A stretch of DNA of 64,000 bases from contig NW_024704743.1 in NCBI RefSeq assembly GCF_018977255.1, forward strand, positions 26,600,001-26,664,000, read 5' to 3'. Every line of letters starts with the position of its first letter. The stretch's first letter is position 1. Below the pieces are notes generated by a model. It made no database searches. It was given only the letters and a program-made list of their open reading frames with translations, and had not been told where the DNA came from. Shown here one piece after another: positions 5,261-56,160 of this stretch. Source of the stretch: Callorhinchus milii. Taxonomy: Eukaryota. The translations under genes were made by a program, and so were the position numbers.

Positions 5261-7129
5261 AGAGAGAGAGAGAGACGCAGACACACACAGAAGGAAGTGT
5301 CCAATCCAAAGCCTGTTGGTCTACTCCATGGTAAGGTCGACGAACACTGAGTTCTGGTTTTGGCTTCTTCCCTTTACACAGGCACAAAAGGAAATTTTAG
5401 TAAGGTTTTCAGATGGTCTCGGTGTTGGGTGGGTGGGGTCTCGGAGATGTCAGTTCTCCAGGGGGATCATATGATCTGGAATATGTTCTAAGTTTTACAA
5501 TCAGTTGACTCAAGAGATGAAAGTGCCCAAAACTGAACGTGGTTCTCCATTTGCGGTGTAACCAATGATGTGTACAAAGCCGGCATTTTGCTTTGCTTTT
5601 GTATTCTATGCTTCTATATATAAAACCTTTTTTAACAGGCTTTTCCTCTTGTCCTATCATTTTTGTAGGATGGTGGTGGGGGAGGGGGTTGTTGGGGATT
5701 GTCACACAAAGAAGCTGATACCATAAACTGAATAGTCAGCAAGTGTTGCAAAAAAGCAATTTTAAGTAGAAAACCTGTCCTCCGTTTTGTAAAACCAGGG
5801 CCAATGTTACCAATTTTGCATTAGAATCAATTCATAGATAATACACCCCCACATATTGCTGTGCTCTGAAGGGATTAAATCTAGTTGTTGAGCAGCAGCT
5901 GATGCTGTTTAACTACAGCTAAAAATCACTAGACACTTCAAACAGTGGGCTGGAATTGTTGTACACACCACCAGCTTCAGTCAACTGAGGAATAATGAAG
6001 ATCTTAAAGTTTCTGAGTGCCCGGGCCTTGGTATCAGATGCCCAGATTGCTCAGAGAAGTTTAGTTCATGTCGCACAAAACTTGTATCCACTGTTTTTTA
6101 AACCCAGTTATTTCCTGGAGCAGCCAACTGTGCTTCATGACTTGGTGGAGTCATGGCCATCGGCAGAGTTTGGCATCGCAAAGCTGTTAGGAAAGACAAC
6201 TGACTGTGAGGATGATCTCTCTGACAGGACCCGTAGAGCTTGTCTATGAGCCTGCCTTAGAGACCTGAAGAACTATGTTTTGAACAGCTCCAGGATCTAC
6301 TCGAAGCAGCTAAAACTGGTTGATCTAACTCTGTGACGTTCAACCTCAACAGTGCCCCTGCAAACTAGGCTTGGGGAGATGGGGAAGAACCATGCTTCTG
6401 TTACAGACCTGTTTAGATTTACTGGTGAAAATGGACACCGGTCAACTTGACATTCAGGCGTTCGACAACTTAATTGATGTCTTGGTGAGCTCATTTATGA
6501 AGTGATGGTTCAGGTCCTGCACCCAAGAAGCTGGTGCCCGATCAAGATCAGGATCCTTAAATTCCAGGCACGCAACGTGGTTGTGCCTAAATTATTTTAC
6601 ATGATTAAGCTGATCCAGCCCGAGTCCCTGCAAAAGCTGAAACTGGTTCACAACATCTAATTCTGGTTCAAAACTGGTTCAAAACTCTATTGTGCTGCTG
6701 AACTTGGTACCTTTGCTCAGATCTTTGACACTCCCAGCAACACCTTTTAATATACGTGGGATGACTCCAGGGGTCAAATTCCTGCTGGTGATGATAGGTG
6801 AAAGGCTGAGCATAATGAAGCATCTCACAGAACTGAACCTGCACTTTTCCATTCTCACCGGATGAATTTGCCAGCTACTCAGGTAGAGTGCAGGATGACT
6901 GATGAGAGTTGGTTTAAATGAGGTAGTTTTGAAGGTTTTCTGCTAGGTGCATATATATCTGGAACTCTCATTCTGGTCTGGATACTCTTAAACATAGAGA
7001 TGAGTTTCTGTATGTGTTGGACACCTGGCTGATCGAAATCAAAAATCTGATCACTGTGGAGATGGTTCTTTTCAATGTGGAGTAGGATCTCCTCTAGGTG
7101 AAGGCATCAAAAAGAACCTTTGTCCCACC

Positions 7130-7357
7130 ATCAGCTATGATGTGAATAATCAATTTCATCTGGGCGATTATTCACCAGGATGAACTTCCTTCTTGCTTCA
7201 AATAATACCATGGATATTTAACATCCACCTGGACAGGTATGACTTTGGATTAATGACTCATCTGAAGGTTGTCATTTCTGACAACCAGTACTCACCAGCA
7301 TTGTAATATAGCTCAACGTGGCAAACTTCTGGCAAGAGTGCTACCAATTTAGCCAAA
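7130..7357 (-). mobile_element. Old Deu-type SINE (SacSINE1/AmnSINE1-like)
   Basis: ccatggatatttaacatccacctg...ctcatctgaagg...agagtgctaccaatttagcca, i.e. reverse of the head plus Deu domain. Confidence 0.6.
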
Positions 7358-9289
7358 CATTGAAGGAAGCAAGGATTGCATTATTCATTTAGGACATTAG
7401 CATTATATCAGTTATTGAGTGGTCTGAAAGAGTCTGACAATTTTGTATTGAGTTCGTTTTGTTCAAAATGCTGTTTTCTTCAGACTGAATGGGTCAGTAC
7501 TGGAAAATGGAATGGTTTTCACTTTGAATCGTCTCGACCTAGTGGGGTCCCTTTGGAGCTAAACTGGAGGTTCTCAGTACTCTGGGTCCAGAGTTAGGCG
7601 GGTCCGCAGTACTTCAGGGCACAGACCAGTACTCTGAGATGCTATATAAATGCCAGTTGTTGTTGTTAACATCAGGTCATTGCTGTCAATGTATAAGTGA
7701 TATCACCGATGACCTATGACCCGAAGTCGGCCATTTTTAGTATGGGAACTGACGAGTGGGCAGGAAGCTCTGTGTATATATACAGTGAATGCAGAAGCAT
7801 TGACCTGTGATTCTATCCTATTATATTGCTGGTTGGGATTTATGGTTAGAAACTACCCTGTTTAATTGAGGTTCAACTGTATATTAGTTTGGATGTGAGA
7901 CTTAATCAGGATTCAACAAAAGGTATTTTTTTGGCTGACAGTATCATAATCCTTGTATTTGATATGACATGTCCTGCCTGGAGGATGTTTCAAAGCATTG
8001 CACAGGATTCACTGTAAAATGCAATCACTGTGTATACACCTTGCCTCTGGATCAAGGTTTTTGTAAATGTTTTTTTTTAAAAGATTAAACCAAATGCAAT
8101 CATTTTTAAAAAAAACTTCTTAAGATATTAGTTTTTTTTATCACACTTATTGTTCAGAATTTCAAAACGTTTCTTAAATATACATCTGCTATTTTTGGAT
8201 GTCTTGGTTTCTTTTTCACTTTAAGAATTTTTCTTTCCTGTATTTGATCTTTTTACCTTTGTCTCTCTGTCTCAGTCAGATATCTCACCCTCTTTGTTTG
8301 TTTGATTCCACCCCCCCCCCACCCAATGCTGGTATTTTCTGTGCCATATTTTCTGAGCCTCTGTTTCTCATTCCCACTTGCAGTGTGAATTTTGACAAGT
8401 TACCACCCTCAATAGAACTTTTTTTTTACTGGGATCCTGGTCTTTGAATTGTACTCAGTTGGAATAAGTTGACCTAACCTGTGACAGATAGTGTGTGTTA
8501 TGATTGAATGCTATGAATGAGCTTGAGTTACTGTTGGCATTCAGTTTAAATTCTATAGCAAGATCCATGCAGTCATGGTATTGTGCGGGAATGGGTTTCA
8601 GAGAGATGACAGACAATTTCTACTCTCTTGGAGAATGTTTTATCAATGAGCAAAAATAACAACTTATTTTTACTGATTGTCAGCACTGATGGTTGGCAAC
8701 ACTGGATTGAATTATTCAGACCAGAACCAGGCCTTGAGGGTCTTTACTGATCAATCTGTGCATATTTCATCCTGAACACAAGATCAGGGTCTTTAGGAAA
8801 ATGGCTCATCTGCATTCAACCTCTTTAAATCATTCTATTAGTTAATATCACATGCATTTCAACAATCTGTGATTCAGAGATTTGAACCCCTCGAAGCTGC
8901 TTGATCTAAACTCTGTGAGGCAACTAGAAGCATGATTGGCTTTTGAAGTGAATCCATTTCTTCTTTGCTGATGTACTTGTCAGGCCTATTCAACGGGAAA
9001 ACTGGCTTTGCTCTCATTAGCTGAGGCTGAGCTATTGGATCAAACAAAGAAACCTACAGGATGAAATGGAACACCAGAACACATGCAGTCTATATACAGG
9101 ATAAATCCAATGATAGCACCAAAAAGACTCAAGCTATCAGCATTCCTGAATTAATATTTTAAAATGATCCATGATGAAGAGTGCTCAGTAGGATATTAAT
9201 AATGCATTGTGAAAGGTGTGGATTTTAGAAGTGTATTAGTTTGATTTTAAGAAATCAAGATATGCAGGTAATGATTTAATGTCAGGAGG

Positions 9290-9595
9290 ATTTGGTGACA
9301 CATTGGATTAGAACACTATCCTTTCATCTCTCGATCCTGGGTTTGAATTCAGTTTAGACTGATGAATAGGATGAAAGTCTCCGCTGACTGTAATTCTCCA
9401 AAGTGATACAAGATTGAAGTTGTTCTCGCCTAGAGTTTAACCTTTAGACTGCTGGCAGCTTGTGCAAATTGGCTGCTGCGTTTGCTACAAATACATAGCA
9501 GGCACACTTCACAGTAAAATCCTGTGAAGCGCTTTGAAACATCTCAACGATGTAAAATGTTTTCAAATGTAAGGATTATTGTTTATTGTTATTAT
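9290..9595 (+). mobile_element. LF-SINE-like head followed by a Deu-SINE 3' fragment
   Basis: cctttcatctctcgatcctgggtttgaattcag...gaaagtctcc, then gtgcaaattggctgctgcgttt...gtgaagcgctttga...aaggattatt. Confidence 0.55.
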
Positions 9596-10944
9596 CTGTG
9601 GAGGTGATCACTATTATAAAGTGGGGAGGAGTTTGCAATGGGTAGGTCTTTTCTGTGGAAAGAGTGGGTTTAAATTCAGTTGAGTTGTCTTTTCTCATCC
9701 CATGCTCTCCTACATTTAGATGTTCCTACATTGAATCTAACCCAACATTTGTTGATGATGATATACAATTAATATACAGCTAAACGTAAAATGCATTCTA
9801 TTTCTTAGAGTGGCTAAAAACATTCTCTCCAAAATGATTTAATGCTTTAAAATAAAAAAAAACACTTGCATTTGATACAGCACCCTATTACATTGAAACA
9901 TGTAAAAAACACTTCACAAAGAGTATATTTTTGAAGCAAAGAAATGTGTTGCAATACAAAAAACGTGTTTTTGATAGTGCCTATAACATGGAAGTGTCTT
10001 GAAGTGTTTTACTGTTAATTGCTGTCAAATGTAGTGATAGGTTTTTATAAATAATCACAATGGATAATCTGTGCAGGAATGATTCACAAACATTAATTAA
10101 TTAATCCAGCTTTATTGAATACTGGATCAGGGAGAAATAATGGTTGGAGAATTTTTTCATGAGTGAGGTTTCTGTTATTTTCAGCCATGAGAGTTCTGTT
10201 TAAAATCAAGCCGGTATCTGGTGAAGCAGATAAATATGTTCAAAAATTGGCTGGCTCAGGGCAACTAAATTTCCCCAGACCCTAGCACTGCTCTATGGAT
10301 TAAGAGCCGGTGTCAGCAGTACTGATTGTGAATCGTGTGATATCTGTATGGTTGGATGTTAACCATATTAACAACCCTTAACTAACACTCATTTTCATAA
10401 TGGTAATTTCCCTAAAGCTCAATTATGTGTTCTCCCGAGCAAATATTCAATTAATATTGCTGATGGAAACTCCACTCTAACATCAGTAAAGTCCCCATAT
10501 TTTAATGATCACTACATTGTTGTAAAATGTAAAGTCAAAGTAAAGAATCTCTGAACTTGTTGAGGTATCTGATTTCAAGTTGAGTGGTTGAGGGATTTGG
10601 CCTTAATGCCCCATGCAGGAAAGAGGGAAGTCATCCAAGGGTTTTGTTTGGGTAAAATTTGAAAGAATGTTATAAAATAATAATAATCCGTGCATACAAC
10701 GCCTTATCACATCGTCGAGGACGACTGCTGGGTGTGGAACTGTCCAATAGCATGAATGAGAATCTGCAGCAGTATGTCTTTTTTTAGAAAATACAAATGG
10801 TTAAAATTTGAAATTATTTCTCATCTCAATGCAATTCCTAAATATTTCCTTATCCTGTTCATTTAGGCCATCTGAATTTTTCTGCCTTTTCTGATACCAG
10901 AAATGTGATTCCGATTCATTCCAGCATTCTACTGTTTGTTGTTT

Positions 10945-11068
10945 TCACGATCCTCTCCCCACCTGCTCGGCTCCCTGCCCAGCTCAGGTGCCCAGTGAGC
11001 AGTGTTAAGTGCTTTGAGACATTCCCCTGTTGTAAAAGGCACTATATAAATGCAGGTTATATTGTATT
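10945..11068 (+). mobile_element. L2 3' UTR fragment
   Basis: C-rich UTR followed by aagtgctttgagacattcccctgttgtaaaaggcactatataaatgc. Confidence 0.7.
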
Positions 11069-11385
11069 TCCTTCTTCGATATATGGCATTTTGAAATCTG
11101 AAGAGAAAGGCCAGGTTACAAAAGCTACAACAAATCCCTAACATTTACGTTTACCTAGCAAAGAGCCTATGTCAAACTGGTCTGGAAAAGACAGCAGTTA
11201 AACATTACCTCAGCATCCCAAGATCATTGCTGTGATTTTCTGCAACTGAGCTTATTATTCTCGATGGTGTCTTTTGCAGTTGAATGCTCATAAATGTGCA
11301 AAATTTTCTTCCAGCTGATGTTGTAGTGGGACTAGGATTACCTATCGTAAAATAACAGAGTACGATTGGTAGCACAAGTTTATTG

Positions 11386-11704
11386 ATAATAATAATGATC
11401 CTTGCATTTAATATAGTGCTTTTCACATCTTGTAGACATCTCAAAGCTCTTCACGCAATATACTGTAAAGTAAATTGACCGTATAATTTGTGGGCGAATT
11501 GCGGCAGCCAATTGCGCACAGCAATGTCCCACAAACGGTCATGACTTGAAGTGACCAATTTTATTATTGTTTATTTTTTTCAGGAGGGATTATTGTCAGG
11601 CGTGTGGGGTGAGGAAACTTGCCCAAGGTTTTGCGCTTCCAGGAATTGAACCTAGGTCTCTCGCTTGTGAGGCGAGTACTCTAACCACTGAGCTACAGGA
11701 CTCC
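11386..11704 (-). mobile_element. Full-length tRNA-derived SINE, short variant
   Basis: Head ggagtcctgtagctcagtggttagag (A box), anticodon-like arm ctcgc-ctcacaa-gcgag, B box ggttcaattcc, Deu-like 3' domain, L2-type stem-loop and (ATT)n. Confidence 0.92.
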
Positions 11705-11764
11705 TAGCTATGACTAAATGTAGAATAAAATCAATAACAGTATATAAAAAATACAGGATTCACC

Positions 11765-12000
11765 TGTGGGTATGGTAATGTAATGGTAACTTTAGTGGTA
11801 ATGTTAGTAAACTAGAGGTAACCAGCATGAATGTCGGCAGTTGGGGAATTTGAACTTTAAAAAATTGAGAATTTGGACTGGCAACAGAAAAACGCTCAAA
11901 CTGCTGGATCGTTGTAAAGAAAAGTGGCTGGTTCACTCCAGGAAATTTGCCATCATTCTGTGGCCTGGCCAACATGTGACTCCAGACCCACTCAGACCCA
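11765..12000 (+). mobile_element. Ancient SINE-like relic of a further family
   Basis: gggaatttgaac...ctggttcact...ggaaatttgccatc...catgtgactccagacccac resembles a repeat I recall from shark genomes. Single copy here. Confidence 0.4.
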
Positions 12001-12347
12001 CTCAGTCACAGATAACTGGCGGTATTGACCACATTCTGAGATGAGTAAAAGAATATCAGTGGATATACTTGATTTATTCCACGCTGGCTCAAGCCACTGT
12101 AAAACCTTTTCTGGATTCCCATCAGAGATCAGCAAATGTAGCAGAGAGCAGAGATCAACTCTGGGACCTCCTGGACTTTGCCAACAACTATTGGTGAACT
12201 TGATCCAGGCTCTGTTAGCCAATAGAGCATGACATGATGATGGGCTATGACTTACATTGAATGGCCACTAGAGGTCCCCATTCGCTGGTCACTGGATTCC
12301 TTCCACGCGGCTTTTACAAGCAAATGTTTTATCTTCTTCTCATCTAA

Positions 12348-12815
12348 TAAAAATAATTCTTGCATTTAAATCAGTGCCTAATTGTAGTACTCAACAAGAC
12401 GAGAGAGTTTCTCCCAGTGTCTAACTAATAATCCCACAGATAAAATTGGTCACTCACTTCGTGGCTGTTGGGGGGCATTGCTGTATGCAAATTGGTTAAC
12501 ATGTTCGCTAACAAATACAGAGACACTTTTAGATGTTTTGACGATGTAATAAGCACTACATCAAATGCAAGAATTAAGGATTATTAGTGCCTATAATGTC
12601 GATACATTTCAAAATGCTTCACTGAGAGTTGCTTTCAAGTTTAGTGGCTGCATTTGTAAGTGAACACAATAGTTGATTTGCACACAACAATGTCACAAAA
12701 TCAAACCTTGAAGTGAATGAACATTTTTTTCTGAAAGATTATTAACTAGGACACTGGGAGAAACTCCCTTCTCTTTTTGAGTAATGCTATGGGATCCACC
12801 TGAACAAATAGATGG
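12348..12815. mobile_element. Nested Deu-SINEs: a + copy (12381-12585) inside a - copy
   Basis: The - copy tail is interrupted, with direct repeat agtgccta at 12373-12380 and 12586-12593 flanking the + copy. Confidence 0.75.
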
Positions 12816-15519
12816 GTTTTAGGAACTGGAGTGACGGAGTAAAGAGAGCAGAGGGTTGAACTGATTGCTAAGGTTGTACTGGTTCAGTGAGATTGAGAGA
12901 GAGAGAGGCAGAGGAGGTTGAAAAAGTTGCACCCGGAAGCAAGGAGGAATTGGCAGGAGGTGAAGAGGAATGCTTCTGTCTAGTCCACATTAAGCCTCAT
13001 CCTGGCTTTGATGTCTGATGGTCAGGCAGTCAGAACGTCAGTGGACCTAGACTCATGGGTAGAAGTAGAGAGTTAGATTGGAGTGTGATGGCAACATGTC
13101 ATATACCCATACTCAATGGCACCAGTTTAGGTCCCAGAGACTGATCACGGCAGAACATAAAAACAGGAGGAAGCCATTCAGCCCCTTGAGCCTGTATCCA
13201 CCATTCTAGAAGATCATGACTGATCTGTAACTTACTGCAGACACAGTGGTTAAGAGCTTATGTAAAACCTTGCTGGTGGAAAGGCAGCAAATAAAACTGA
13301 GCACAAAAATAGCTTTCTGGCCAGAGCTGGTGCTTGAACCTGACACTGAGCCTCGAATAAACTACCAGTCAAACAGGTGCTAATGATTTTAATCCATTTG
13401 AAATGTTTTCATTCAAACAAGTTTCACAAAAAACAAACAAACAAGGGAGGGAGGAATAAAACATTTGAGAAATCAGCACTGCCATATCTGTTGCCTGAAA
13501 AAAACAGCAACAGGAGAGTAATTCGAATTTGATCATTAACTGGAGACAGTAATCTATTAAACTAACACTCATGGTGCCATGCGTGTCATAAACGACAAAT
13601 TCGACAAGGAGAACGCAAGCCAGGTTAACATGGTAAAGAAAACAGATGTCAGTGAATTTCATCAATCCTGCCTTTGGATTTCTGGTAAGATTGCCTGACA
13701 ATTTTGTAAGTGATGCACAGAAAACAATTTTGCCCGAACTGACAATTCTCTCCCCCTTGTTCTTCACAATGATTTGTTTTTATGAGGCCGTTGATTAACT
13801 TATTTAAATCTGAATGAATGGAACCGTACAGAGGCTTTAAGGAACTGGTGATTCCATATTCTGCTTGGAAGCTAGATGGCACAGTGGTCCTGTTCCTGTT
13901 TTCGCAAGAGCACTGGGCTGAGTGGGTGACAAGGAAATAATTTTACACGGAGGAGGGAGAAATTGCTCATAAATCTGTATCTAAGGTTGCTGTGCGAAAT
14001 GCAATGCCCAGTATTCCTATCAAAGATCACATGCCTGACAGTGTGCAATCCCCAGGTACTAAAAAAGGAGAGTGCATTATTGAAGTGTCTAGCCTTTCCT
14101 TACAGCTCAACAATAACATCAAGGAGACGTTTCATCTTCTTAAACACTATTCAATGAGTAAGTGCATTTTCTCCGGTTCTGATTCAAACAAGGCAAAAAA
14201 ACACCTTGTAAATGTTACAGACCCACTCAGTTCCTTTCCATGCCATTCATTTAATGGTCTAAACTACTGTTGTTCAGGATGCGCAATGCAAATTGTTTAT
14301 TTTTCCAGCAAACTATTTATACTGGTGAACCAGCTTCAATCATTTATTGTATTTATTGTAACATTTCTCTCTTCTATCCACCTCTCCTCTTGAAGACACT
14401 GACTGTTTGCTGGGGGAAATTTGTATGAGTCCCAGCCACCATAAGATGTGTGCAAATTGATTGGCGCATTCGTGGCAATCAATTTGCACACAAATTAAAC
14501 AGCCATACATTTTTACAAGGAATGATTTTTACTAAATTAAATTCTAATAAATTAAAAAAAAATTAAATAAACTTTGACGCTGCACTTTACAGTATATTGA
14601 TTGGAAGATACAATGGGCATCAGTCCCAATTGTTGATTCTTATTGATACCTCGGTGTTATGGTAGAGGCCAACTTCAGCCAGGACACTGCCCTGAAGAAG
14701 GAGTGAAGGGCACTCTGTTGCATAAACACAAACTGCATTTACATAGCGTCTTTTATGTCAGGAGGAGAGATGAAGTGGGATCACTCCAATACTACTACTG
14801 ATAATAATCCTTACATTTGATATAGCGCCTTATCACATCTTTGAGACATATCAAAGCGCCTCACAGAATATACTGTAAAGTGAATTGATTGCATATATGG
14901 CGAAACCAAAAAGAGGATAATAATAATATGCATGGCTCTCCAGATGTTTCAATTGTTAAATGACTTCTCGTTTCTTTCCAACTAAATTCAATATTGATGA
15001 GCGACGGGAAGCTCTGAGTGATTGACTGTCAAGCCTTAATCAATGGCAGAAGGGTACATCTGCCTTCCTGTTAGCACAGCCGGTACATTAAGGAGATTAT
15101 TTATTCAGACTTTTGTAAGAGACAGCAGGAGAAGCTTGACGAAAGACCACCTGACGCTGTTACTTATATAAGAAAAGTTGATGTGCAGCAGTAGGTTATT
15201 TGTATTATAAATTCAGGTTTTGAAGTACAAATCAAATAAAATATCAATACTGTATTTGAATTCTTAAGGATTTAATTATAGGCTTAAGACTGGAAACCAT
15301 GGAGAAATCTATAACTTTCCTCCAATTTTCCACAGGTTATGAATAACCAAGAATTGTCTAAGGTGACAAACAAGAATTATTAGTCAGTCAGAAGTCAGAC
15401 AGGTTTGTAAATTCCTTCCTGTACTTGGGTTCAGCTGCCACTCAGTTACAGACAAACTGTTTACTAGTTTTGGAGTGTGCAGTGTCTCAGGGAGGAGAAG
15501 GAGGAAGCATAGAGTGGGA

Positions 15520-24604: not shown

Positions 24605-26780
24605 ATTGCCTGTCAGACAACCTGGATGAGAGCCAGCGTTCTACAGCTGAACGTCAGCTAGACCGAAGCTCTCTTATTGGCTCGCGCCAGCGCCTCCGCA
24701 TCTCAGGCACTGGCAGCATCAGCATCCACGGATGCATACTCCACCTCACCAAGCCAGTCAGGAACCTGGGCGTCTTGTTTGACCCTCGACTGTCCTTTCT
24801 ACCCCATATCCATGGCACACTCTTGCTTCCCCCACCGCCGCAACATTACCCGACTCCGACACTGCCTCACCCCTCAAGCCGCCGAAACCCTCATACATGC
24901 CTTCATCATGGGCCTCTCCCACACCAGGCTCCGTGACCTCCTCACACCCACCCTGGCCCGGCTCCATTTGTTCCCCATCCCTCAGAGGATTGAGTTCAAA
25001 ATTCTCGTCTTCAGCTACAAAGCCCTCCATGGACTTGCCCACTCCTAACTCTCTGACTTGTAGTGTTCGGTAATGTTAGTGTTCAGAGTTTTAAAAGAGG
25101 TGGCTGCAGAGATAGTGGATGCTTTGTTTTTGATCTTCCAAAATCCCCTGGATTCTGGAATCGTTCCCATTGATTGGAAGGTCGCAAACGTAACACTGCT
25201 ATTTAAGAACGGTGGGAGACAAATAATGGGGATCTATAGACCAGTTAGTCTGACATCGATGGTAGGGAAAATTCTGCAGTCCTTAATTAGGGACATCGTT
25301 GTGGGGTACTTAGAAAATCATAACATGATTAGGCAGAGTCAACATGGCTTTACGAAAGGGAAATTATGTTTAACAAATCTTTTAGAGTTTTTTGAGAATG
25401 TAACTAATGGGTTAGATAGGGGGGAACTAGTAGATGTGGTGTACTTGGATTTCCAGAAGGCATTCGACAAGGTGACACATAAAAGACTGTTGCATAAAAT
25501 TAGAGCCCATGGAATTAACGGTAATATGTTAGCATGGATTGGAGAGTTGCTAACAGGAAGATAACAAAGAGTAGGGATAAACAGATCTTTCTCGGATTTG
25601 CAGGATGTGACTAGTGGAGTGCCACAAGGATCAATGCTTGGCCCTCAATTATTTACAGTCTATATCAATGATTTAGATGAGGAAATAGAATTTAACATAT
25701 CTAAATTTGTGGACGATATGAAGCTAGGTGGGAGAGTAAGCTGTGAGGATGACACAAGAAGAATACAAAAAGAAATAGACAGGCTAGGTGAGTGGACAAG
25801 AAGGTGGCAGATGGAGTATAATGTGGGAAAATGTGACGTTATTCACCTAGGTAGTAACAATAGAAAAGCAGATTATTTTCTAGAGGGGGAGAGACTAGTA
25901 GTGTTAGTGTTCAGAGAGATTTGGGTGCCTTGTACACCAGTCACAAAAAGTTAGTATGCAGGTACAGCAAGGAACTAGGAAGGCTAATGCCATTTTGGCG
26001 TTCATTGCAAAAGGCTTAGAATGCAAGTATGGGAATTCTTGCTGCAGTTGTACAAGGCCTTGGTGAGACCGCACCTAGAATATTGTGTGCAGTTTTGGTC
26101 TCCTTATTTAAGAAAGGACATACTTGCCTTAGAGGGTGTAGAGCATAGGTTCACTAGGTTGGTTCCTGGGATGAGGGGGTTGACCTATGAGGATAGGTTG
26201 AGTAGACTAGGCCTATAATTCTCTAGAATATAGAAGAATTAGAGGTGATCTTATAGAAACCTATAAGATTCTTAAGGGTCTTGACAGGGTAGATGCCGTG
26301 AGACTGTTTCCCCTGGTTGGAGAATCCAAAACTAGGGATCATAGTCTCAAGATTAAGGATCAGCCTTTTTGAACTGAGTTGAGGAAACGTTTCTTCACTC
26401 AGAGGGTAGTGAATTTGTGGAATTCTCTACCCCAGAAGGCTGTGGATGCTCAGTCCTTGAACATGAATATTCAAGACTGAGATTGATAGATTTCTAAAGT
26501 ATAGAAGGATTAATGGATATGGGGATAGGGGGGGTAAATGGAATTAGGTTAGAAGATCAGCCATGATTTTATGAAATGGCGGGGCAGGCTCGAAGGGCCG
26601 AATGGCCTACTCCTGCTCCTACATCTTATGATCTTATGGTTCTGCTAATTCCTTATCAACCTGTCCACTCCCTCCACTCAGCAGGTTCCAGCCTCTCTGT
26701 GTCCCCTGCCCAGCATGCCCCACCATTGGTGGTCTGCCCCAAAGGTGCTTTACAAATGTAATTTTGTATGGTATTGTATA
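24605..26780 (+). mobile_element. L2 3' fragment split by the CR1 insertion (24605-25060 and 26644-26780)
   Basis: AAETLIHAFI and [24 protein letters not shown] on the left. ctaattccttatcaacctgtccactccctccactcagcagg on the right continues the L2 sequence seen at 37420-37460. Confidence 0.9.
25061..26643 (+). mobile_element. 5'-truncated CR1 LINE, well-preserved RT pseudogene
   Basis: YRPVSLTS, QHGFTKGKLCLTNLLEFF, YLDFQKAFDKV, GVPQGSMLGPQLF, KFVDDMKLGG, LVRPHLEYCVQFWSP. Broken by stops and frameshifts. 3' hairpin and (atcttatg)2 tail. Confidence 0.97.
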
Positions 26781-34410: not shown

Positions 34411-35162
34411 GATACAGTCAAATTGGAGAAAACATTTTTACAGGAATGAGATGTGCAAGACATTGACAAGAAAGTGAGGACATTGTCAAGGAAGTACTTG
34501 CGTCAGGCAGAGGTCAAACGTTTAAATTTATTAAGTGCATTCACAACGAGGTATCTTATTCATGAATCAATAGGTGTCCTAATAGTTAAATTAGTAATCA
34601 TTCTAATGGTCGAGTTAAAATGTGCACTGGTTCCCTTAAAGAGAGAGTACTGTTGACATGAGAAGTGTACTTAGGGTTAATTTGAGAGGTGTACAGTACT
34701 TGCCGTTATCAGCTCCACCCTCAGGAAACCCTCAAGAATCTCTCACATGACTCCTCCATGTTCTACAACTGCTTACCCATGTACAACCTAGGTGTTGGAA
34801 TGAGTCAGTGTTTACTAGTTTCACTCGCTCCTTCCTCTTCTATCACTCCCTCTTTCAGACATGCCAATCTGATTTCCAGCTCACCCATGAAACCCAGTCT
34901 GTCCTGGTTAAAGTCGTCAACAATGTTCTCTACAACTGCAACCATGGCTCACTTTGCCTCTTTGTTCTCCATGAACTCTAAGACACTATCCTGCAAGAAA
35001 GGTACTATACAAATGCAAGTTTTTGTTGGTTAATTCTCTACCACTTTAAACACCATGAATTATTCTATTCTTCGCCACTGTCTCTACTCCTAACTCAAAC
35101 AAAAAGAGAGAGAGCTGGGAAAACGCAGCAGGTCAGGCATCATCTATGAAGAAAGGAAATTG

Positions 35163-35199
35163 AGTCAATGTTTTGGGTCCATGACCCTTCGTCAGAACT
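35163..35199 (-). ncRNA. Minimal type I hammerhead ribozyme motif, core-mutated (left arm)
   Basis: Reverse complement is agtt-ctgacga-a-gggtc-atg-gaccc-aaaacatt-gact, identical to the right-arm copy. Confidence 0.75.
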
Positions 35200-35565
35200 G
35201 GGGGCTGTTGGGAGGAAGAGGTTTTAAGGACAAGTTGAGAGGGGGAGGCAGAACAAGGAAAACAAAGATGACAAAAAAGAAGACAAAGGAGAGAATGTGT
35301 TAGTTGATGGGTTAAAGAGGTGATAGTGGTGTGAAACAAAAGGTGGGGGAAACAAAACTGGGGAGAAGAGGTGTTAATAATAATAATAATCCTTGCATTT
35401 GATATAGCGCTTCTCACGTCGGGAGGACGTCCCAAAGCGCTTCAAACAGTGCAGAACAGGCAACACATCAGAGAGAAGCACAGAGTGTCTGGGGTGATGA
35501 TTGTAATGATAATAGAAGGTAGCTCTTCTCATAACAGAAAGAGGGGGAGGGGGGAAGGTGAGCTG

Positions 35566-35859
35566 TTATAGTCTGAAGTGTCTGAAATCGATATTGAGGC
35601 CAGAGGGCTGTAAGGTTCCTAGCAGATAGACAAGATGCTGTTCCTCGAGCTTTCACTGTGAATCATTGGAACAGCGTAGGAGACTATGGATGGAGAGGTC
35701 AGGCTGTGAAAGGGAGTGTGAGTTAAAATGGCAGGAGACTGGATGATCAGGGTTGACCTTGCGTACAGAACAGATGTGTTCTTCAAATCGGTCACCCAAT
35801 CTGTGCTTAGTCTCCCCAATATAGAGGAGACCACACCGTGAGCAGTGGATACAGTATAT
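35566..35859 (-). pseudogene. PLE GIY-YIG endonuclease C-terminal fragment
   Basis: IYCIHCSRCGLLYIGETKHRLGDRFEEH...PVSCHFN...Q*KLEEQHLVYLLGTLQPSGLNIDF. The Cx2C between the GIY and YIG motifs plus downstream histidines is typical of PLE endonucleases. One in-frame TGA at 35653-35655. Confidence 0.92.
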
Positions 35860-36215
35860 ATAAATATAATTTTGTTGCAGCCACTTCAGACCACAACAGC
35901 TCACCGTTTCCCCCTCCCCCTCTTTCTGTAACCAGAAGAGCTATCTTCTGTTATCATTACAATCATCACCCCAGACACTTTTTGTCTCTCTCTGGTGTGT
36001 TGCCTGTTCTGTACTATTAACAGCTCTTCTCCCCAGTTTTGTTTCAACCCATCCCCTTTTTTGGTTTACAACCCCCCTTTTGTTTTATGTCACTATCTTT
36101 AACCCATCAACTAACACATTCTCTCCTTTGTATTCTGTTTTGTTGTCTTTGTTTTCCTTGTCCTGCCTCCCCCTCTCAACTTGTCCTTAAAAACCTCTCC
36201 CTCCCAACATGCCCC

Positions 36216-36252
36216 AGTTCTGACGAAGGGTCATGGACCCAAAACATTGACT
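36216..36252 (+). ncRNA. Minimal type I hammerhead ribozyme motif, core-mutated (right arm)
   Basis: Stem I agtt/gact, CUGACGA box at 36220-36226, stem II gggtc/gaccc. The expected GAAACGUU reads AAAACAUU. Confidence 0.75.
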
Positions 36253-36332
36253 CAATTTCCTTTCTTCATAGATGCTGCCTGACCTGCTGAGTTTTCCCAG
36301 CTCTCTCTTTTTGTTTCAGATTTCCAACATCT

Positions 36333-36647
36333 GGAGTCCTGTAGCTCAGTGGTTAGAGGACCCGCCTTGCAAGCGAGACACCTGGGTTCAATTCCAGGCA
36401 GGGTGAAACCTTGGGCAAGTTTCCTTACTCCACACGTCTAATAACAATCCCTCCAAAACAAAACAATAATAAATTGGGCATTTTCAATCTATGACTGTTT
36501 GTGGGACACTGCTGTGTGCAATTGGCTGTTATGTTTCGCCCACAAATATACAGTCAATTCACTTTACAGTATATTCTGTGAAGAGTTTTGAGACGTCTAG
36601 AAAACATGAAAAGCGCTATATCACATTCAAGGATTATTATTATTAAT
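36333..36647 (+). mobile_element. Full-length tRNA-derived SINE (short variant) inserted in the PLE tail
   Basis: A box at 36342-36352, B box at 36385-36395. It splits catctg|cagtatttt, with a short tct(g) repeat at both ends. Confidence 0.93.
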
Positions 36648-38569
36648 TCTGCAGTATTTTGTGTTTTGTTCTATTCCTAGCTCCACCTCCATAGCCCTGC
36701 TGATATATTTATATGGCACCTTTCATGTCGGGAGGACATCCCATTGACATTTCCTCCCACCCTGCACTATCACTTGCTGTGTTCCTTAGGGGTCTATTCC
36801 TGGTCCACTTCTTCTTAACATCTATATTCTCTCACTTGGTGACATCATCTGCAAATGAGTTTCACTTTAACATGCAGGCAGATGACACCCAACTCTCTTT
36901 CTGTCTCTGCCCTTGATTCCAGGACCGATATTGAGGCTCTGCTGATAGGCTTCCATCAGCACCTCCACAACTCAGGCACTGACCGCATCACCATCCAAGG
37001 TTGTACATTCCACCTCACCGAGCCAGTCTGGAAACTTGGCATCTTGTTGATCCTCAACTGTCCTTTCTACACCACATCAATGCCATAACAGCTCTGCTTT
37101 CCCCCATCTTCGCTACATCACCCGGCTCTGCTACTACCTCACCCCTCAGGCTGACGAAACCCTCATCCACACATTCATCACATCTGGGCTTGATTACGCC
37201 AACACCCTGCTTGTCGGCCTTACCAAGTCTTCCCTCCACAAGTTACAGATCATCCAGAATTCTGAAGTTCGTATCCTTTCTCGTACTAGGCTCCATGATC
37301 CCATCAACCCTACCATCGCCTGGCTCCATTGGCTACCCATCTCTCAGAGGATAGAGTTCAAAATCCTCGTCCTCACCTTCAAGGCCCTACTTGGCCTTGA
37401 CCCTCCCTACCTCTGTGACGTGCTAAACCGATACCAACCTGTCCACTCCCTCCGCTCAGCAGCCTGTTTCACGCCCCCCGCCCAGCCCGCTTGGCCATCC
37501 AGCGGCCGGCCTTTCTGCCCCTACCCTATGAAACATCCCACATTTCATTCTCTTCGCTCCCTCCCACGTTTCAAGACCCTCCTCTTCGACCGAGCCTTTG
37601 GCCACCTTCGTACCCTTCCTGCTCTCCACCTTCCCCAATCCCAATCCCCAGCTCAGGTCCAAATCCCTGACTATCCAGCTCCTTGGGACGTCCTCCCGAC
37701 ATGAAAGGCGTTATACAATTATTTGTATTTGTATTGTATATATATGTGGGTAAAATTAAAAGTTTAATTTAAAATAGGACTCATTTATGAAAATCATATT
37801 GATTGCAACATTAACCTGTCATTACCATAGTTTGGTTAGAACACAAATATAAAATGTTGAAACACAAAATTGTCAAGTAGCTATAAGGGCAATTATTATA
37901 TTCAGCTCCATTTATTGGAGCAAATGATGCCTGGTTATGTCAAGAATGTACTCTTAAAATATTGATAATAGAGTGACACTGTCCTCTTTAAAATTATATA
38001 TGATATATCCTTACATATCTAATAAAGTGTTTGTCTCTATATGCAAACTAAACAGGTACAAAAGTATTGTGCTGCCTCACATTGATGTGAAATACTTAAC
38101 GAAATAAATGGTGACAATAAACTTTATCTCAGTTTCCTGATAGAAATTGAAATCCCTTGATGATGGCATTAGCACTTCTATTCTCATTAAACAGTTTCAA
38201 AGGCTGTTCTGTGTTTTCCATTAGATGTTAATGAAGGACATTTACCACTTGTTAGAACAAACACGAAACTAATTCTATCACTGTATTTTGCAATGTATCA
38301 TTTGTATCCTTCACATCATTCATCTACTTGCTTTTGTTTTTCTAGTCAACTTTGCCAATAAGTTCCAGTCCAGTGATTACAGAATGACATTTCAAACAGA
38401 CTCTTTATTAAACATAAAATAGTTCTACTTAGGCCAAGCTTATTTAATTTATATCTGCTATGTTAATTACATTGGCAAACCCTGCAGAGTGCCCCAAAAC
38501 AGAAATAAGTAACAAAATCAAATGGGAGTCTATTGGCAATTCCAAATATCCAGAAACACAGTTAACACA

Positions 38570-43165: not shown

Positions 43166-44992
43166 TACAACAAGATTGCATTTATAGAGCACCTTTCACG
43201 TCAGGAGGATGTCCCAAGGCGCTGGACAGTTGGGTCGGGACCTGAGCAGGGGGGAACTGGTCAGGGTGACGGGAGGGAAGGGAGGGAGCGAGGAGAAGGT
43301 AGAGAGTCGAGAGGGGAGCTGAAGGCACGGTTGAAGAGAAAAGTCTTGAGACCGGCCTTGAAGGAGGAAAGGGAGGAAGCAAGGCGAAGGCACTGGGGGA
43401 TGGAGTTCCAGAGCCTCGGGGCTGAGAGTCTGAAGGCCCGACCACTGATTGTAGAACGGTTAGGGCGGGGGATGTGGAGCAGACCGGAGCCAGAGGAATG
43501 GAGGGTACAGGCAGGTAAGTAGGGGGATAGTAGGTCGGAGAGGTAGGAGTGAGTAAGGCCGTGAATGGCCTTGGAGGTGACGATGAGAATCTTGAATTCG
43601 ATCCTCTGGGGGATGGGGAGCCAGTGGAGGCGAGCGAGGGTGGGAGTGATGTGGACCCGAAGCCTGGTGCGGGACCGTACACAAGCTGCAGAGTTCTGAA
43701 TGACCTGCAGCTTGTGGAGGGAGGTGCCGGGAAGGTCAACGAGGAGAGATTTCCCATAGTCCAGCCTTGAGGTGATAAAGGCGTGGACCAGAGTTTCAGC
43801 AGCGTGAGGGGTGAGGTAGTGCCGTAGTCTGGCGATGTTCCGGAGGTGATGGAAGGCGGTGTGGGGAAGAAATTACAGCTCAGGGTCAGACAGAACACCG
43901 AGGTTCCTGACTGGCTTTGAGAGGTGGAGAGTGCAGCCTTGGATGCTGATGCTGTCAGCGCCTGAGGTGCGGAGGCGCTGACGCGAGCCATCAGGTGGGC
44001 CTCAGTTTTGTGCACGTTGAGCTGAAGAAAGTTGTCTCTCGTCCAGGACTCGATGTCAGACAGGCAGGCTGTCAGGACATCGATGGTAGTGGAGTTGAGG
44101 GTAGAAGAGGAAAGGTAGAGTTGGGTTTCATCCGCATACATGTGGAAGTTAACCCCATGTCTGCGGATGATGTCACCAAGGGGGAGCATGTAGAGGGTGA
44201 AGAGGAGGGGACCGAGGACAGAGCCCTGAGGGACACCACACGAGACAGTGCGTGGCTGGAGGAAAAGCCGTTTGTGGAAACAAAATGAAGAGGTGGGAGA
44301 GGTAGGACCTAAACCACTCAAGGACAGGGCCTTGAAGGTTGAGGTGGGAGGACAAGCGGTGGAGGAGGATAGAGTGGTCGACTGTATCGAATGCGGCCGA
44401 TAGGTTGAGGAGGACGAGGAGGCAGAGGGAGCCCTGGTCGCAGATGGTCAAGATGTCATTAGTGACCTTGACCAGGGCGGTTTCCGTGTTATATGCAGCA
44501 CGGAAACCCAACTGGAGGGGTTCGAAAAGTGAGTGGGTGGAGAGGAAACAGCGCAGCTGGGAGCCGACGACTCTTTCGAGAACCTTGGATAGGAAGGGGA
44601 GGTTGGAGATGGGCCGGTAGCTTGATAGCTGCGACACATCAAGGGAGGGTTTTTTCAGTGTGGGAGTGATGGTGGCAGTTTTGAGGGGAATGGGAACAGA
44701 GCCAGAGGAGAGGGACAGGTTAATGGTGTCTGTGAGAAGTGGAGCAAGGAGATGGAGCTGGGAGATGAGGAGTGGAGTGGGGATGGGGTCCAGGGAGCAG
44801 GTGGTGGCTTTCAAGGATAGGATGAGTTTGGTGACAGAGGGTGGGGAAATGGGTTCGAAGTTGTGTAGGGGAGAATGGGTAGGAGTCGGAGTGTGGGAGG
44901 GAAGGGGTGAGGGGTGGGTGGACCTTGGAGGGGCAGTGACCACGGAGAGGATTCCCTTGATTTTGGATTCAAGGAAATCCAGCATCTCCTCG
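43166..44992 (-). mobile_element. 5'-truncated L2 LINE, ORF2 RT pseudogene
   Basis: [68 protein letters not shown]. Frameshifted, with catalytic aspartates altered (D to N, YADD to YADE). Confidence 0.97.
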
Positions 44993-47273
44993 TTTTAAAG
45001 GTTATCCACAAAATATGAATTATTTAAACTTCATATGCTTTCAACCAACGCCTACCCACTACTATACTCTGACTAGTTATGAACACAGGGATTATTCTTA
45101 AATGAATTGTCCAAAAGCAATCAAGCACCTGAACTCAGGGTAGGAAGATCTATGACAACCAGGATAAGTCATACTAAAAACATCAAACGCAATAGGTGAA
45201 AAGCAGCAGAAACAATATAAAATAGGCTGCTTTGACTAGTGCTTTTGGACATCTTTCCCTTTCCACTCCCTTCAGCTCCCACCCCCAGCTCGGGTGCTCA
45301 GCCAGCAGTGGACTTCCTCCCGATGGGAAAGACACAATCTAAATGTTAATCAATATTGCATTCTATTGAATCATCACATTTTGTTTTCCCACACCTTCAA
45401 AGAAAAGAATGTGCTTCTGCACACATTTGAAATTATTTCATGGCTTTGCAATAAGAAACAAACTTCAGGTCTCCTCTGTAATATATTGTAATTCCTTATC
45501 AAGGAATTTCATTAGAATTCACGTTAACCTGTGTCAACTCTGCTCTGTAAGTAGATTGTGTAGGAGCAAAATTCCCATTGGTCAATGTGATGCTCTTCGG
45601 GTTGTTGGAAGGAGTCCCATTTAAGAGATTTGGATTCATTAGTAAGGAATTTAGTTAATAATGAACACAGGTTACACCCTATGTTTTTCCAGCTGTGAGT
45701 TTGAGGAGCTTTGATAATGTAGATTGAAAGGAATCCAAACATTCGATTCTAACTCTGTGGGGGAAACATTGGAATACTAAGGGAGAACGACAAAAATGGC
45801 CTATTGATCATCTAAATACAAAGTTTTTTGAAAAACAGTGAATACATCTATCAGTTACAGAAAAGAGGCATTCCATTATCATGTGTCCATTCGAAATGAT
45901 CAAAGTAGGTTCTACAGTATAACCATGTCATTATTTCCATAGACCTGACAACCAAAAGAATCATGAAAACATTGGAATAAACCAGATGTATCGAGGAGGA
46001 GTTATTACAATAACTATAATAACTACAGCACCTTTTACGTTGGGAGAACATCTCTGAACACTTTAAACAACTGTCTGTGCACCTGAGCCTGGGATGAGGA
46101 GGGGAGCAGGGGAGAGAGAAAAAACACTGTCAAGGAAGTAACTCTTGAATTAACTTTGAATTGGAAGGACAGAGATGGAGTTTCAGAGAGTGGGGACAGA
46201 ATGTTTGAAAGCTTGTAAACCATTGACTGAAAGCTTCTTGTAAAGGCAGAATTCTTTGCACATATGTATCATCCATTTTAGGTCTGAAACTGAATCCAAC
46301 CCAATTGGATTCCATCCAAAGAGGTCTCATACTCTTGCTTCTAAAAGATTTTTGTTTTAATAAAATAGAAATTAGCATTAGTGGAGCAGACACACAAAAG
46401 TAATGAAAGTGAGCAAGGTCTTTTGTTTTCACACTAACATATCGACCATCCTTCCGATTCCACACAAAATGTTTGACACTTTTGTCTTTTGTTTGAAATT
46501 AAAAATAAGGAAGTTAGAGTACATGGAATAAAATCTGTGCTCCTGCAAATTAAACTACAATTTACAGTGTAGTTTCAATATCTCAGGTCCTAAAGACAGA
46601 TGGACTTTAAATGAGTTTGGCTGATAATATTGGCATAACTTACCATTTTTCCCCAGCCTTATGGTAACTCATCTGCCTCAGCTTCTGTTTAAACTTTGCT
46701 TTTATTATTCCTTTTGCTTCACCTCAAAATTGTCTTCATTCCTTTTATTCATTTTTTTAACTAGAGGTATGTCACACATCAACCTTGGGAGCAAATTGCA
46801 CCATTGAAGATAATTTAATATTGATTCTGGATACAAATGCGGCCAAAGAGTATTAAAGTATTAACCCTCCCCTTCCCAGTGATTTTGCAGTACAGTTTCA
46901 GGGGCTGAGGGAGCGTCACTGCCAGAGTCAAAGAAAAGAAACCCTCCTCTGCTGGCCTTTTTCACCATCACCTCTTTAAAGGTGAGCCTCAAGACCTTCC
47001 TCTTTGACTGCTCCTTCAATCATCGCTAGCTCCCACCTTCAGCCAAACCAGGACTTTCAAGCACCTTGGGATATTAAACACTCTGGGATGCTACCCTATG
47101 TGAGGGGCGCTATATAAATGCAAGTTGTTGTTGTCCTTCTGATGTGAAAAGCGTTCTATAAATGTAAATTTGTATTGGATTGTGTGTATCCAATTTTAAT
47201 GACTTGAAGTCCAATTTACAATATTAGCAAAAAGAAAAGAAGCACCAGTTACAATTTCTGAAAGTTGCCAATT

Positions 47274-56047: not shown

Positions 56048-56160
56048 TAAAAAAGACAGATGCTGAAAATCTGAAATGAAAACAGAAATTGCTGGAAATC
56101 GACAGGAAATCAGGAAGGGAAAGATACATTAATTCTTTGGGTATGATCTTTTATCAGAAC
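56048..56160 (-). mobile_element. Degenerate Penelope-like 3' end
   Basis: cagatgctgaaaatctgaaatgaaaacagaaattgctggaaa...tgatcttttatcagaac aligns with the reverse of 36218-36332. Confidence 0.6.

Follow-up and report, generated by a model that had tools for sequence, protein, structure and literature searches.

A 64,000-nt stretch of the Callorhinchus milii genome (contig NW_024704743.1, positions 26,600,001 to 26,664,000 of the forward strand; here called the window, with positions counted from its first nucleotide) contains an old, 5'-truncated insertion of a Penelope-like element (PLE), a retrotransposon whose two ends are inverted relative to each other, and each of these inverted arms holds a degenerate hammerhead ribozyme motif with the same two core lesions. 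The element is otherwise an ordinary decayed copy and is predicted to be inert. The shared lesions are real and non-independent, and the shared state has one origin, for which there are two candidate causes, both of them known processes: copying of both arms from a single donor RNA that already carried the lesions, or transfer of the lesions from one arm to the other by gene conversion.

In each arm, a 4-bp stem I is followed by CUGACGA, a bulged A, a 5-bp stem II, and then AAAACAUU, the layout of a minimal type I hammerhead. The right-arm motif spans 36216-36252 on the plus strand, with C3 at 36220, and the left-arm motif spans 35163-35199 on the minus strand, with C3 at 35195 (positions within the motif follow the standard hammerhead numbering scheme). 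G12 is replaced by A at 36241 and 35174, and G16.2 by A at 36246 and 35169, identically in both arms; the 15.2-16.2 pair thus reads CA in both rather than the palindromic CG. A probable third common CpG-to-CpA change lies in loop II (36233/35182), with the loose-end consensus of contig runs X6 and X14 taken as the reference. These observations bear out the initial annotation, an earlier reading made from the sequence alone, which had reported stem I, CUGACGA, stem II, and the same two core changes in each arm. A motif descriptor run over the 64-kb window returned exactly two matches, one per arm, and a model built from relatives placed both arm motifs at the top of its six window matches, albeit weakly (E about 0.05). 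The Rfam hammerhead search that the initial annotation had also called for gave it no support, as no hammerhead was among the six matches at E up to 10. The monomer fold of the motif is no better than that of shuffled sequences (z 0.2-1.0). Both motifs are predicted to be catalytically dead, because G12 is the general base of the hammerhead (PMC6155905) and because the palindrome that forms stem III in hammerhead dimers (PMC4209133) is broken.

The arm changes are to be read as lesions since the family keeps GAAACGU at the motif site, just as the initial annotation had supposed. Four DNA-type contig runs out of 24, whose contigs are uninformative on strand, level, and editing, were compared over a 750-nt stretch, with 5,580-13,101 contigs per run placed on it, and the loose-end consensus at the motif is GAAACGTT (175 contigs in X6, 155 in X14). 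The site-by-site comparison with these contigs covered 40 of 148 difference rows, which do not include 36241 and 36246. Among relatives, 52 loci with related endonucleases yielded 42 motif matches, 32 of which were aligned; those set aside were seven repeats from a single locus, a motif whose core is deleted, a truncated motif, and one that was not parsed. The seed set came from a descriptor restricted to G or A at position 12; in the aligned motifs, G12 is retained in 26/32 and G16.2 in 28/32. Stem I covaries among the relatives (18 two-sided changes, compared with 0/500 shuffles), a result that kinship can inflate. A consensus lacking GAAA had been named in advance as a reason to give up the hammerhead assignment; both the contig consensus and the relatives retain the core. 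The double lesion itself is real and present in both arms, but the same lesions recur in related elements, with G12A in 4/32 motifs, G16.2A in 4/32, and both together in one. The entries L035 (G12A) and L037 (G12A plus G16.2A) are one locus, 93% identical including the flanks, in which the two changes are seen to accrue stepwise.

The relatives hold other core variants as well. CAGAUGA stands in place of CUGAUGA in 6/6 motifs of one subfamily (L001:2120-2159, L013:2455-2494, both arms of L018, L022:722-761, and L030:360-399), which, judging from the alignment, is a fixed U4A core variant that spread and that has a longer, covarying stem I. GAAC replaces GAAA at two separate loci (L015:1931-1970 and L034:307-346), which may represent either a parallel change or a second lesion-bearing lineage. 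At L034:256-2508, two inverted PLE copies are 75-86% alike and differ in core state; they reflect either one event with two donors or separate insertions.

That a subfamily accounting for 6/32 motifs can fix a core variant such as CAGAUGA raises the possibility that AAAACAUU is likewise a fixed functional variant of a sub-lineage, for example a protein-binding fold, with its identity between the arms kept by selection, and the motif region is indeed the best-conserved part of the arms. We nevertheless regard this as very improbable: both changes belong to the most frequent class of neutral mutation, most of the family has an intact core, the open reading frame (ORF) fragment of the element is broken, the base lost at position 12 is the catalytic one (PMC6155905), and the monomer fold does not stand out from shuffles.

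The consensus places CpGs across C11.1-G12 and C15.2-G16.2, so the initial annotation was correct in calling both changes CpG-type. CpG decay in the window is heavy. The observed/expected CpG ratio is 0.32, and the CpG sites of 20 window copies of a short interspersed nuclear element (SINE; 13 columns, 136 states) now read CG 38 times, TG 50 times, CA 37 times, and otherwise 11 times, i.e., about 72% of sites have changed, under a column rule biased toward decayed sites. One could therefore suppose that the two arms were intact at insertion and that the same CpGs then decayed separately in each, all the more as the same two sites decay stepwise in L035/L037. However, the chance of finding CA at both sites in both arms by independent decay is 0.005, and 0.0004 if the third site is included, while the chance of any state common to the arms at both sites is 0.08. 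In addition, two non-CpG departures (36255 and 36266) are common to the arms inside a run of identity around the motif, at sites where the family majority letter makes up 92% and 97% of depth in run X1. Independent loss is thus improbable, the shared lesion state has one origin, and the refuting case named in the initial annotation, CpG decay so frequent that chance would produce the shared state, does not hold even with the heavy decay of the window SINEs. Deaminase editing of the cDNA was also considered as a source of the G-to-A changes and was rejected as unnecessary, given that all of them lie at CpG and that C-to-T decay is present too, in the form of a stop codon.

Our preferred explanation, at close to even odds, is that a single uncut donor RNA already carrying the lesions served as the template for both arms. 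Two CpGs of the core consensus would have been lost in a methylated genomic donor copy or in a sub-lineage, and once this donor was transcribed, its uncut RNA would have been reverse-transcribed through the motif by a Neptune-like reverse transcriptase (RT)-endonuclease. Both target strands would have been primed, with one start site giving a 35-nt tail and the other omitting it; alternatively, one arm could have arisen by fold-back. The two arms would have been identical at birth inside a 14-bp target-site duplication (TSD) and would later have drifted about 8% apart and gained two repeat insertions. In vitro work on an Anolis PLE provides precedents for several of these steps (PMC11167929): mutating the hammerhead leaves insertion unaffected, the main substrate is RNA that has not been cut, extension takes place on both target strands, and the tail spans the gap between two RT start sites. 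An insert spanning the motif must, we infer, stem from uncut or religated RNA, and mobilization of ribozyme-dead RNA is therefore to be expected. The initial annotation, which had offered mobilization of a dead RNA or gene conversion as explanations, thus settled on the right two alternatives, but the first of them is unsurprising rather than remarkable, because hammerhead mutants insert normally in vitro (PMC11167929).

Two further observations favor a lesion-bearing donor. Outside the identical run, both arms depart together from the family majority at 35941, 36153, and 36307 (3/10 listed sites checked). At another locus, L018:986-2549, a separate inverted-arm PLE insertion with a perfect 11-bp TSD carries G16.2A in both arms, whereas 4/4 sibling copies keep G at 16.2, and the identical stretch around the motif is only about 34 nt. 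The inverted arm of L018 is interrupted by about 360 nt of other sequence.

Several points weigh against the donor explanation. The joint departures outside the run may be plain subfamily differences, and L018 is a single case. The two arms have apparently decayed in opposite ways at the CpG at 36144-5, and six CpGs are retained in the internal part of the element, which means that decay of the donor was not broad. The remaining points concern how the differences between the arms are distributed, and they favor a different history, in which the donor was intact, one arm decayed, and non-allelic conversion or hairpin-templated repair then copied at least 63 nt, perhaps most of the outer arm, onto the other. 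We regard this as a serious alternative, though somewhat short of probable.

For the alignment, the arms were divided into three segments, without the repeat that interrupts the left arm and without a short stretch of low complexity, and 31 difference events (8.0%) were counted over 387 columns. The initial annotation had noted about 60 identical nucleotides around the motif; a run of 63 nt does exist (36212-36274, plus strand, mirrored at 35141-35203), but it is not robust evidence of conversion. With every difference counted singly, the tests indicate clustering (SSF P=0.022, breakpoint P=0.045), the inner part of the arms differs more than the outer (20/166 versus 13/223, or 12% versus 5.8%; P=0.04), and a run of at least 63 nt through the core has P=0.02-0.08. 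The SINE nested in the element, which is necessarily younger, is 9/145 (6%) from its majority, a value that fits the inner but not the outer arm (P=0.067); taken as a clock of 6% per lineage, and thus 12% pair divergence, it would give the run P=0.0015, although this clock is inflated by subfamily structure and its interval is 3-11%. Furthermore, 3/4 CpGs have been lost, near the level of one aged copy in the window, and the CpG at 36144-5, with its apparently opposite decay in the two arms, lies outside the run. Conversion is also reported from other repeats, namely in up to 25% of plant long terminal repeat (LTR) pairs (PMC7251063) and between neighboring Alus (PMC3670932). In contrast, treated as a scan, the 63-nt run has P=0.10-0.16. 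All of the clustering tests share the same 31 differences, and the signal vanishes once differences lying no more than 3 columns apart are collapsed, leaving 20 events (longest run P=0.39, SSF 0.45, inner/outer 0.35), with the run through the core then at P=0.08. The 63-nt identity is therefore not robustly significant (P from 0.02 to 0.45 depending on the test). Conversion would also need to have occurred late, after the arms had diverged by several percent, and L018 shares its lesion without a long identical tract. Donor origin and arm-to-arm conversion could both have acted.

The architecture around the motifs is that of an endonuclease-positive (EN+) PLE, with a GIY-YIG end, inverted pseudo-LTRs (pLTRs), a 35-nt tail at one end, and a TSD. 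The sense 3' pLTR (35097-35582, minus strand, without tail) contains the ORF end, with the stop codon in its inner end, and the 3' untranslated region; the inverted pLTR (35882-36316, plus strand) was delimited by the inverted-repeat alignment. The paired segments are 35092-35225/36190-36323 (92% identity), 35222-35318/36096-36192 (95%), and 35435-35556/35907-36028 (86%). The 3' ends of both arms face outward, the left arm lying on the minus strand and the right arm on the plus strand, and the arm alignment therefore upholds the Penelope-like layout with long inverted arms originally proposed. So too does the proposed 14-bp TSD with two mismatches stand, its left copy at 35083-35096 matching the right copy at 36670-36683 in 12/14 positions; a match this good occurs in 2.6% of random trials. 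Of the "extra tail" claimed for the right arm, only 35 nt belong to the PLE, as 36317-36337 (21 nt, in whose sequence the loose ends of the family continue) and 36656-36669 (14 nt), both on the plus strand, and the remainder is a later insertion of a tRNA-headed SINE (36338-36655, plus strand). This SINE, which has many copies in the window, carries its own 8-bp TSD, the left copy of which (36330-36337) lies within the first part of the PLE tail and the right copy of which is at 36648-36655. That the tail is merely the SINE and the TSD a chance match was rejected by the tail and TSD analysis. A second later insertion, found in the left arm only, is a 71-nt 3' repeat-tail fragment at 35374-35444, which is likely young because it retains five CpGs. 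The truncation point is separated from the inverted arm by an AT-rich junction (35860-35881), a filler that includes a short TA run and has no source of 12 nt or longer elsewhere in the window. Neptune elements are reported to prefer microsatellite targets.

The coding remnant is the GIY-YIG end of the PLE ORF, 97 codons long, 5'-truncated, and running on the minus strand at 35569-35859 to its end within the pLTR. The GIY-YIG C-terminus placed between the arms by the initial annotation is thus confirmed, both by a Pfam PF01541 match (E=1.5e-4; 22.4 bits, just under the 22.6 cut-off) and by homologues, with 11/36 candidate proteins matching at 55-63% identity and E down to 1e-32; the four best protein matches are from rays. 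At 35653-35655 the frame is interrupted by a stop codon, in a position occupied by R, H, Q, C, W, or L in relatives, which is a CpG-decay pattern. The RT is absent, as the copy is truncated at about 35860. In homologues P0001-P0004, a C-x4-C-x2-C linker precedes the endonuclease, and the CX2-5CxxC linker is assigned to Neptune and Nematis in PMC8557442. Because the window copy ends before the linker and RT, its placement comes from its relatives, which make it probably Neptune-type, with Nematis as the remaining alternative.

No other clear copy of the family was found in the 64-kb window; the sole candidate, 56057-56160 on the minus strand, matches the family 3' end and tail weakly (E=0.03) and is possibly a very old, short copy. 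Pattern scans for the family across contigs from metagenomes, genomes, and viruses gave 0 matches. In the contig runs, depth over the hammerhead-to-tail region (36188-36337) exceeds that of the rest of the arm by a factor of roughly 10 to several hundred, and most of the family is therefore likely made up of very short 3' copies or of a non-autonomous derivative. In X1, a 1,514-nt contig with a depth of about 60 represents a younger subfamily that is about 15% away. Repeats matching within the window account for about 23% of its length, and fragments of the long interspersed nuclear element type lie at 25064-25951 (plus), 44176-44994 (minus), and 37051-37704 (plus), the first two with Pfam RVT_1 matches.

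As regards transcription, Pfam was run on 108/271 stop-to-stop frames (at least 68 aa, mostly non-repeat) and recovered three RT fragments, the GIY-YIG end, and two weak sub-threshold matches. No host exon was found among these 108 frames, a scan that short exons would escape, and hence no read-through context was found. No RNA run was listed among the 24 runs, which has no bearing on expression. The initial annotation had foreseen a long double-stranded RNA hairpin from read-through transcription. Such a fold is indeed predicted for a transcript of 35097-36316, with about 390 long-range pairs and a longest perfect stack of 63 bp, but it is only a folding prediction, and one to be expected because any inverted pair would give a long hairpin.

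The family is abundant and has left many decayed copies, and a single locus among them carries little weight. Its broader interest lies in the fact that inverted arms record the state of the donor twice, so that arm pairs could test in vivo whether the hammerhead is needed for transposition. The role of PLE hammerheads is still called unclear (PMC8557442), and their dispensability was demonstrated in vitro only (PMC11167929). It is conceivable, although on balance unlikely, that Neptune-type PLEs routinely mobilize ribozyme-dead donor RNAs in vivo, perhaps even preferentially since these remain uncut. Thousands of arm pairs in the genome would test whether the hammerhead is needed or rides along. 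In pairs like those of the window copy and L018, lesions found in both arms go back to the donor, barring later conversion, and a count of such pairs would also measure how often close inverted repeats convert one another. Among publications screened by title and abstract opening (Penelope hammerhead, CpG, and cartilaginous Neptune, with subscription literature mostly outside), none counting core lesions in arm pairs was found.

Compared with known systems, the window copy is conventional in its form. An inverted, 5'-truncated copy that has a TSD and, at one end, a 30-40-bp tail is typical of EN+ PLEs (PMC3846280, PMC8557442), and the mirror-image arms singled out by the initial annotation, while confirmed, are therefore standard for the group. 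Like Pen2a_Av (PMC3846280, with the scheme in PMC8557442), it has a truncated GIY-YIG ORF, inverted pLTRs, a one-end tail, and a TSD. Unlike elements of that type as presented there, it is much older and shorter, lacks the RT, has received two later repeat insertions, and has an AT-rich filler rather than a clear long palindrome at its junction. Neptune-type PLEs combine a CX2-5CxxC linker with a CCHH endonuclease (PMC8557442); the window endonuclease is 55-63% identical to proteins with the C-x4-C-x2-C linker, whereas the fragment itself ends before the linker and RT. PLEs and retrozymes have been described from sampled vertebrates, one chondrichthyan included, in a preprint (bioRxiv 10.64898/2026.07.22.740005).

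Similar to the minimal type I PLE hammerheads of Cervera and de la Pena (2014; PMC4209133), the arm motifs have CUGANGA, a bulged nucleotide before stem II, a G10.1-C11.1 pair, a short stem I, no stem III, and a position in the pLTR; in contrast to them, G12 and G16.2 are A, with the catalytic base and the palindrome lost. The Poseidon element PAc of Anolis (PMC11167929) belongs to a different clade, is active, and was studied in vitro; its ribozyme needs protein and is dispensable for insertion in vitro. What it shares with the window copy is a tail downstream of the hammerhead and an insertion that reads through the motif.

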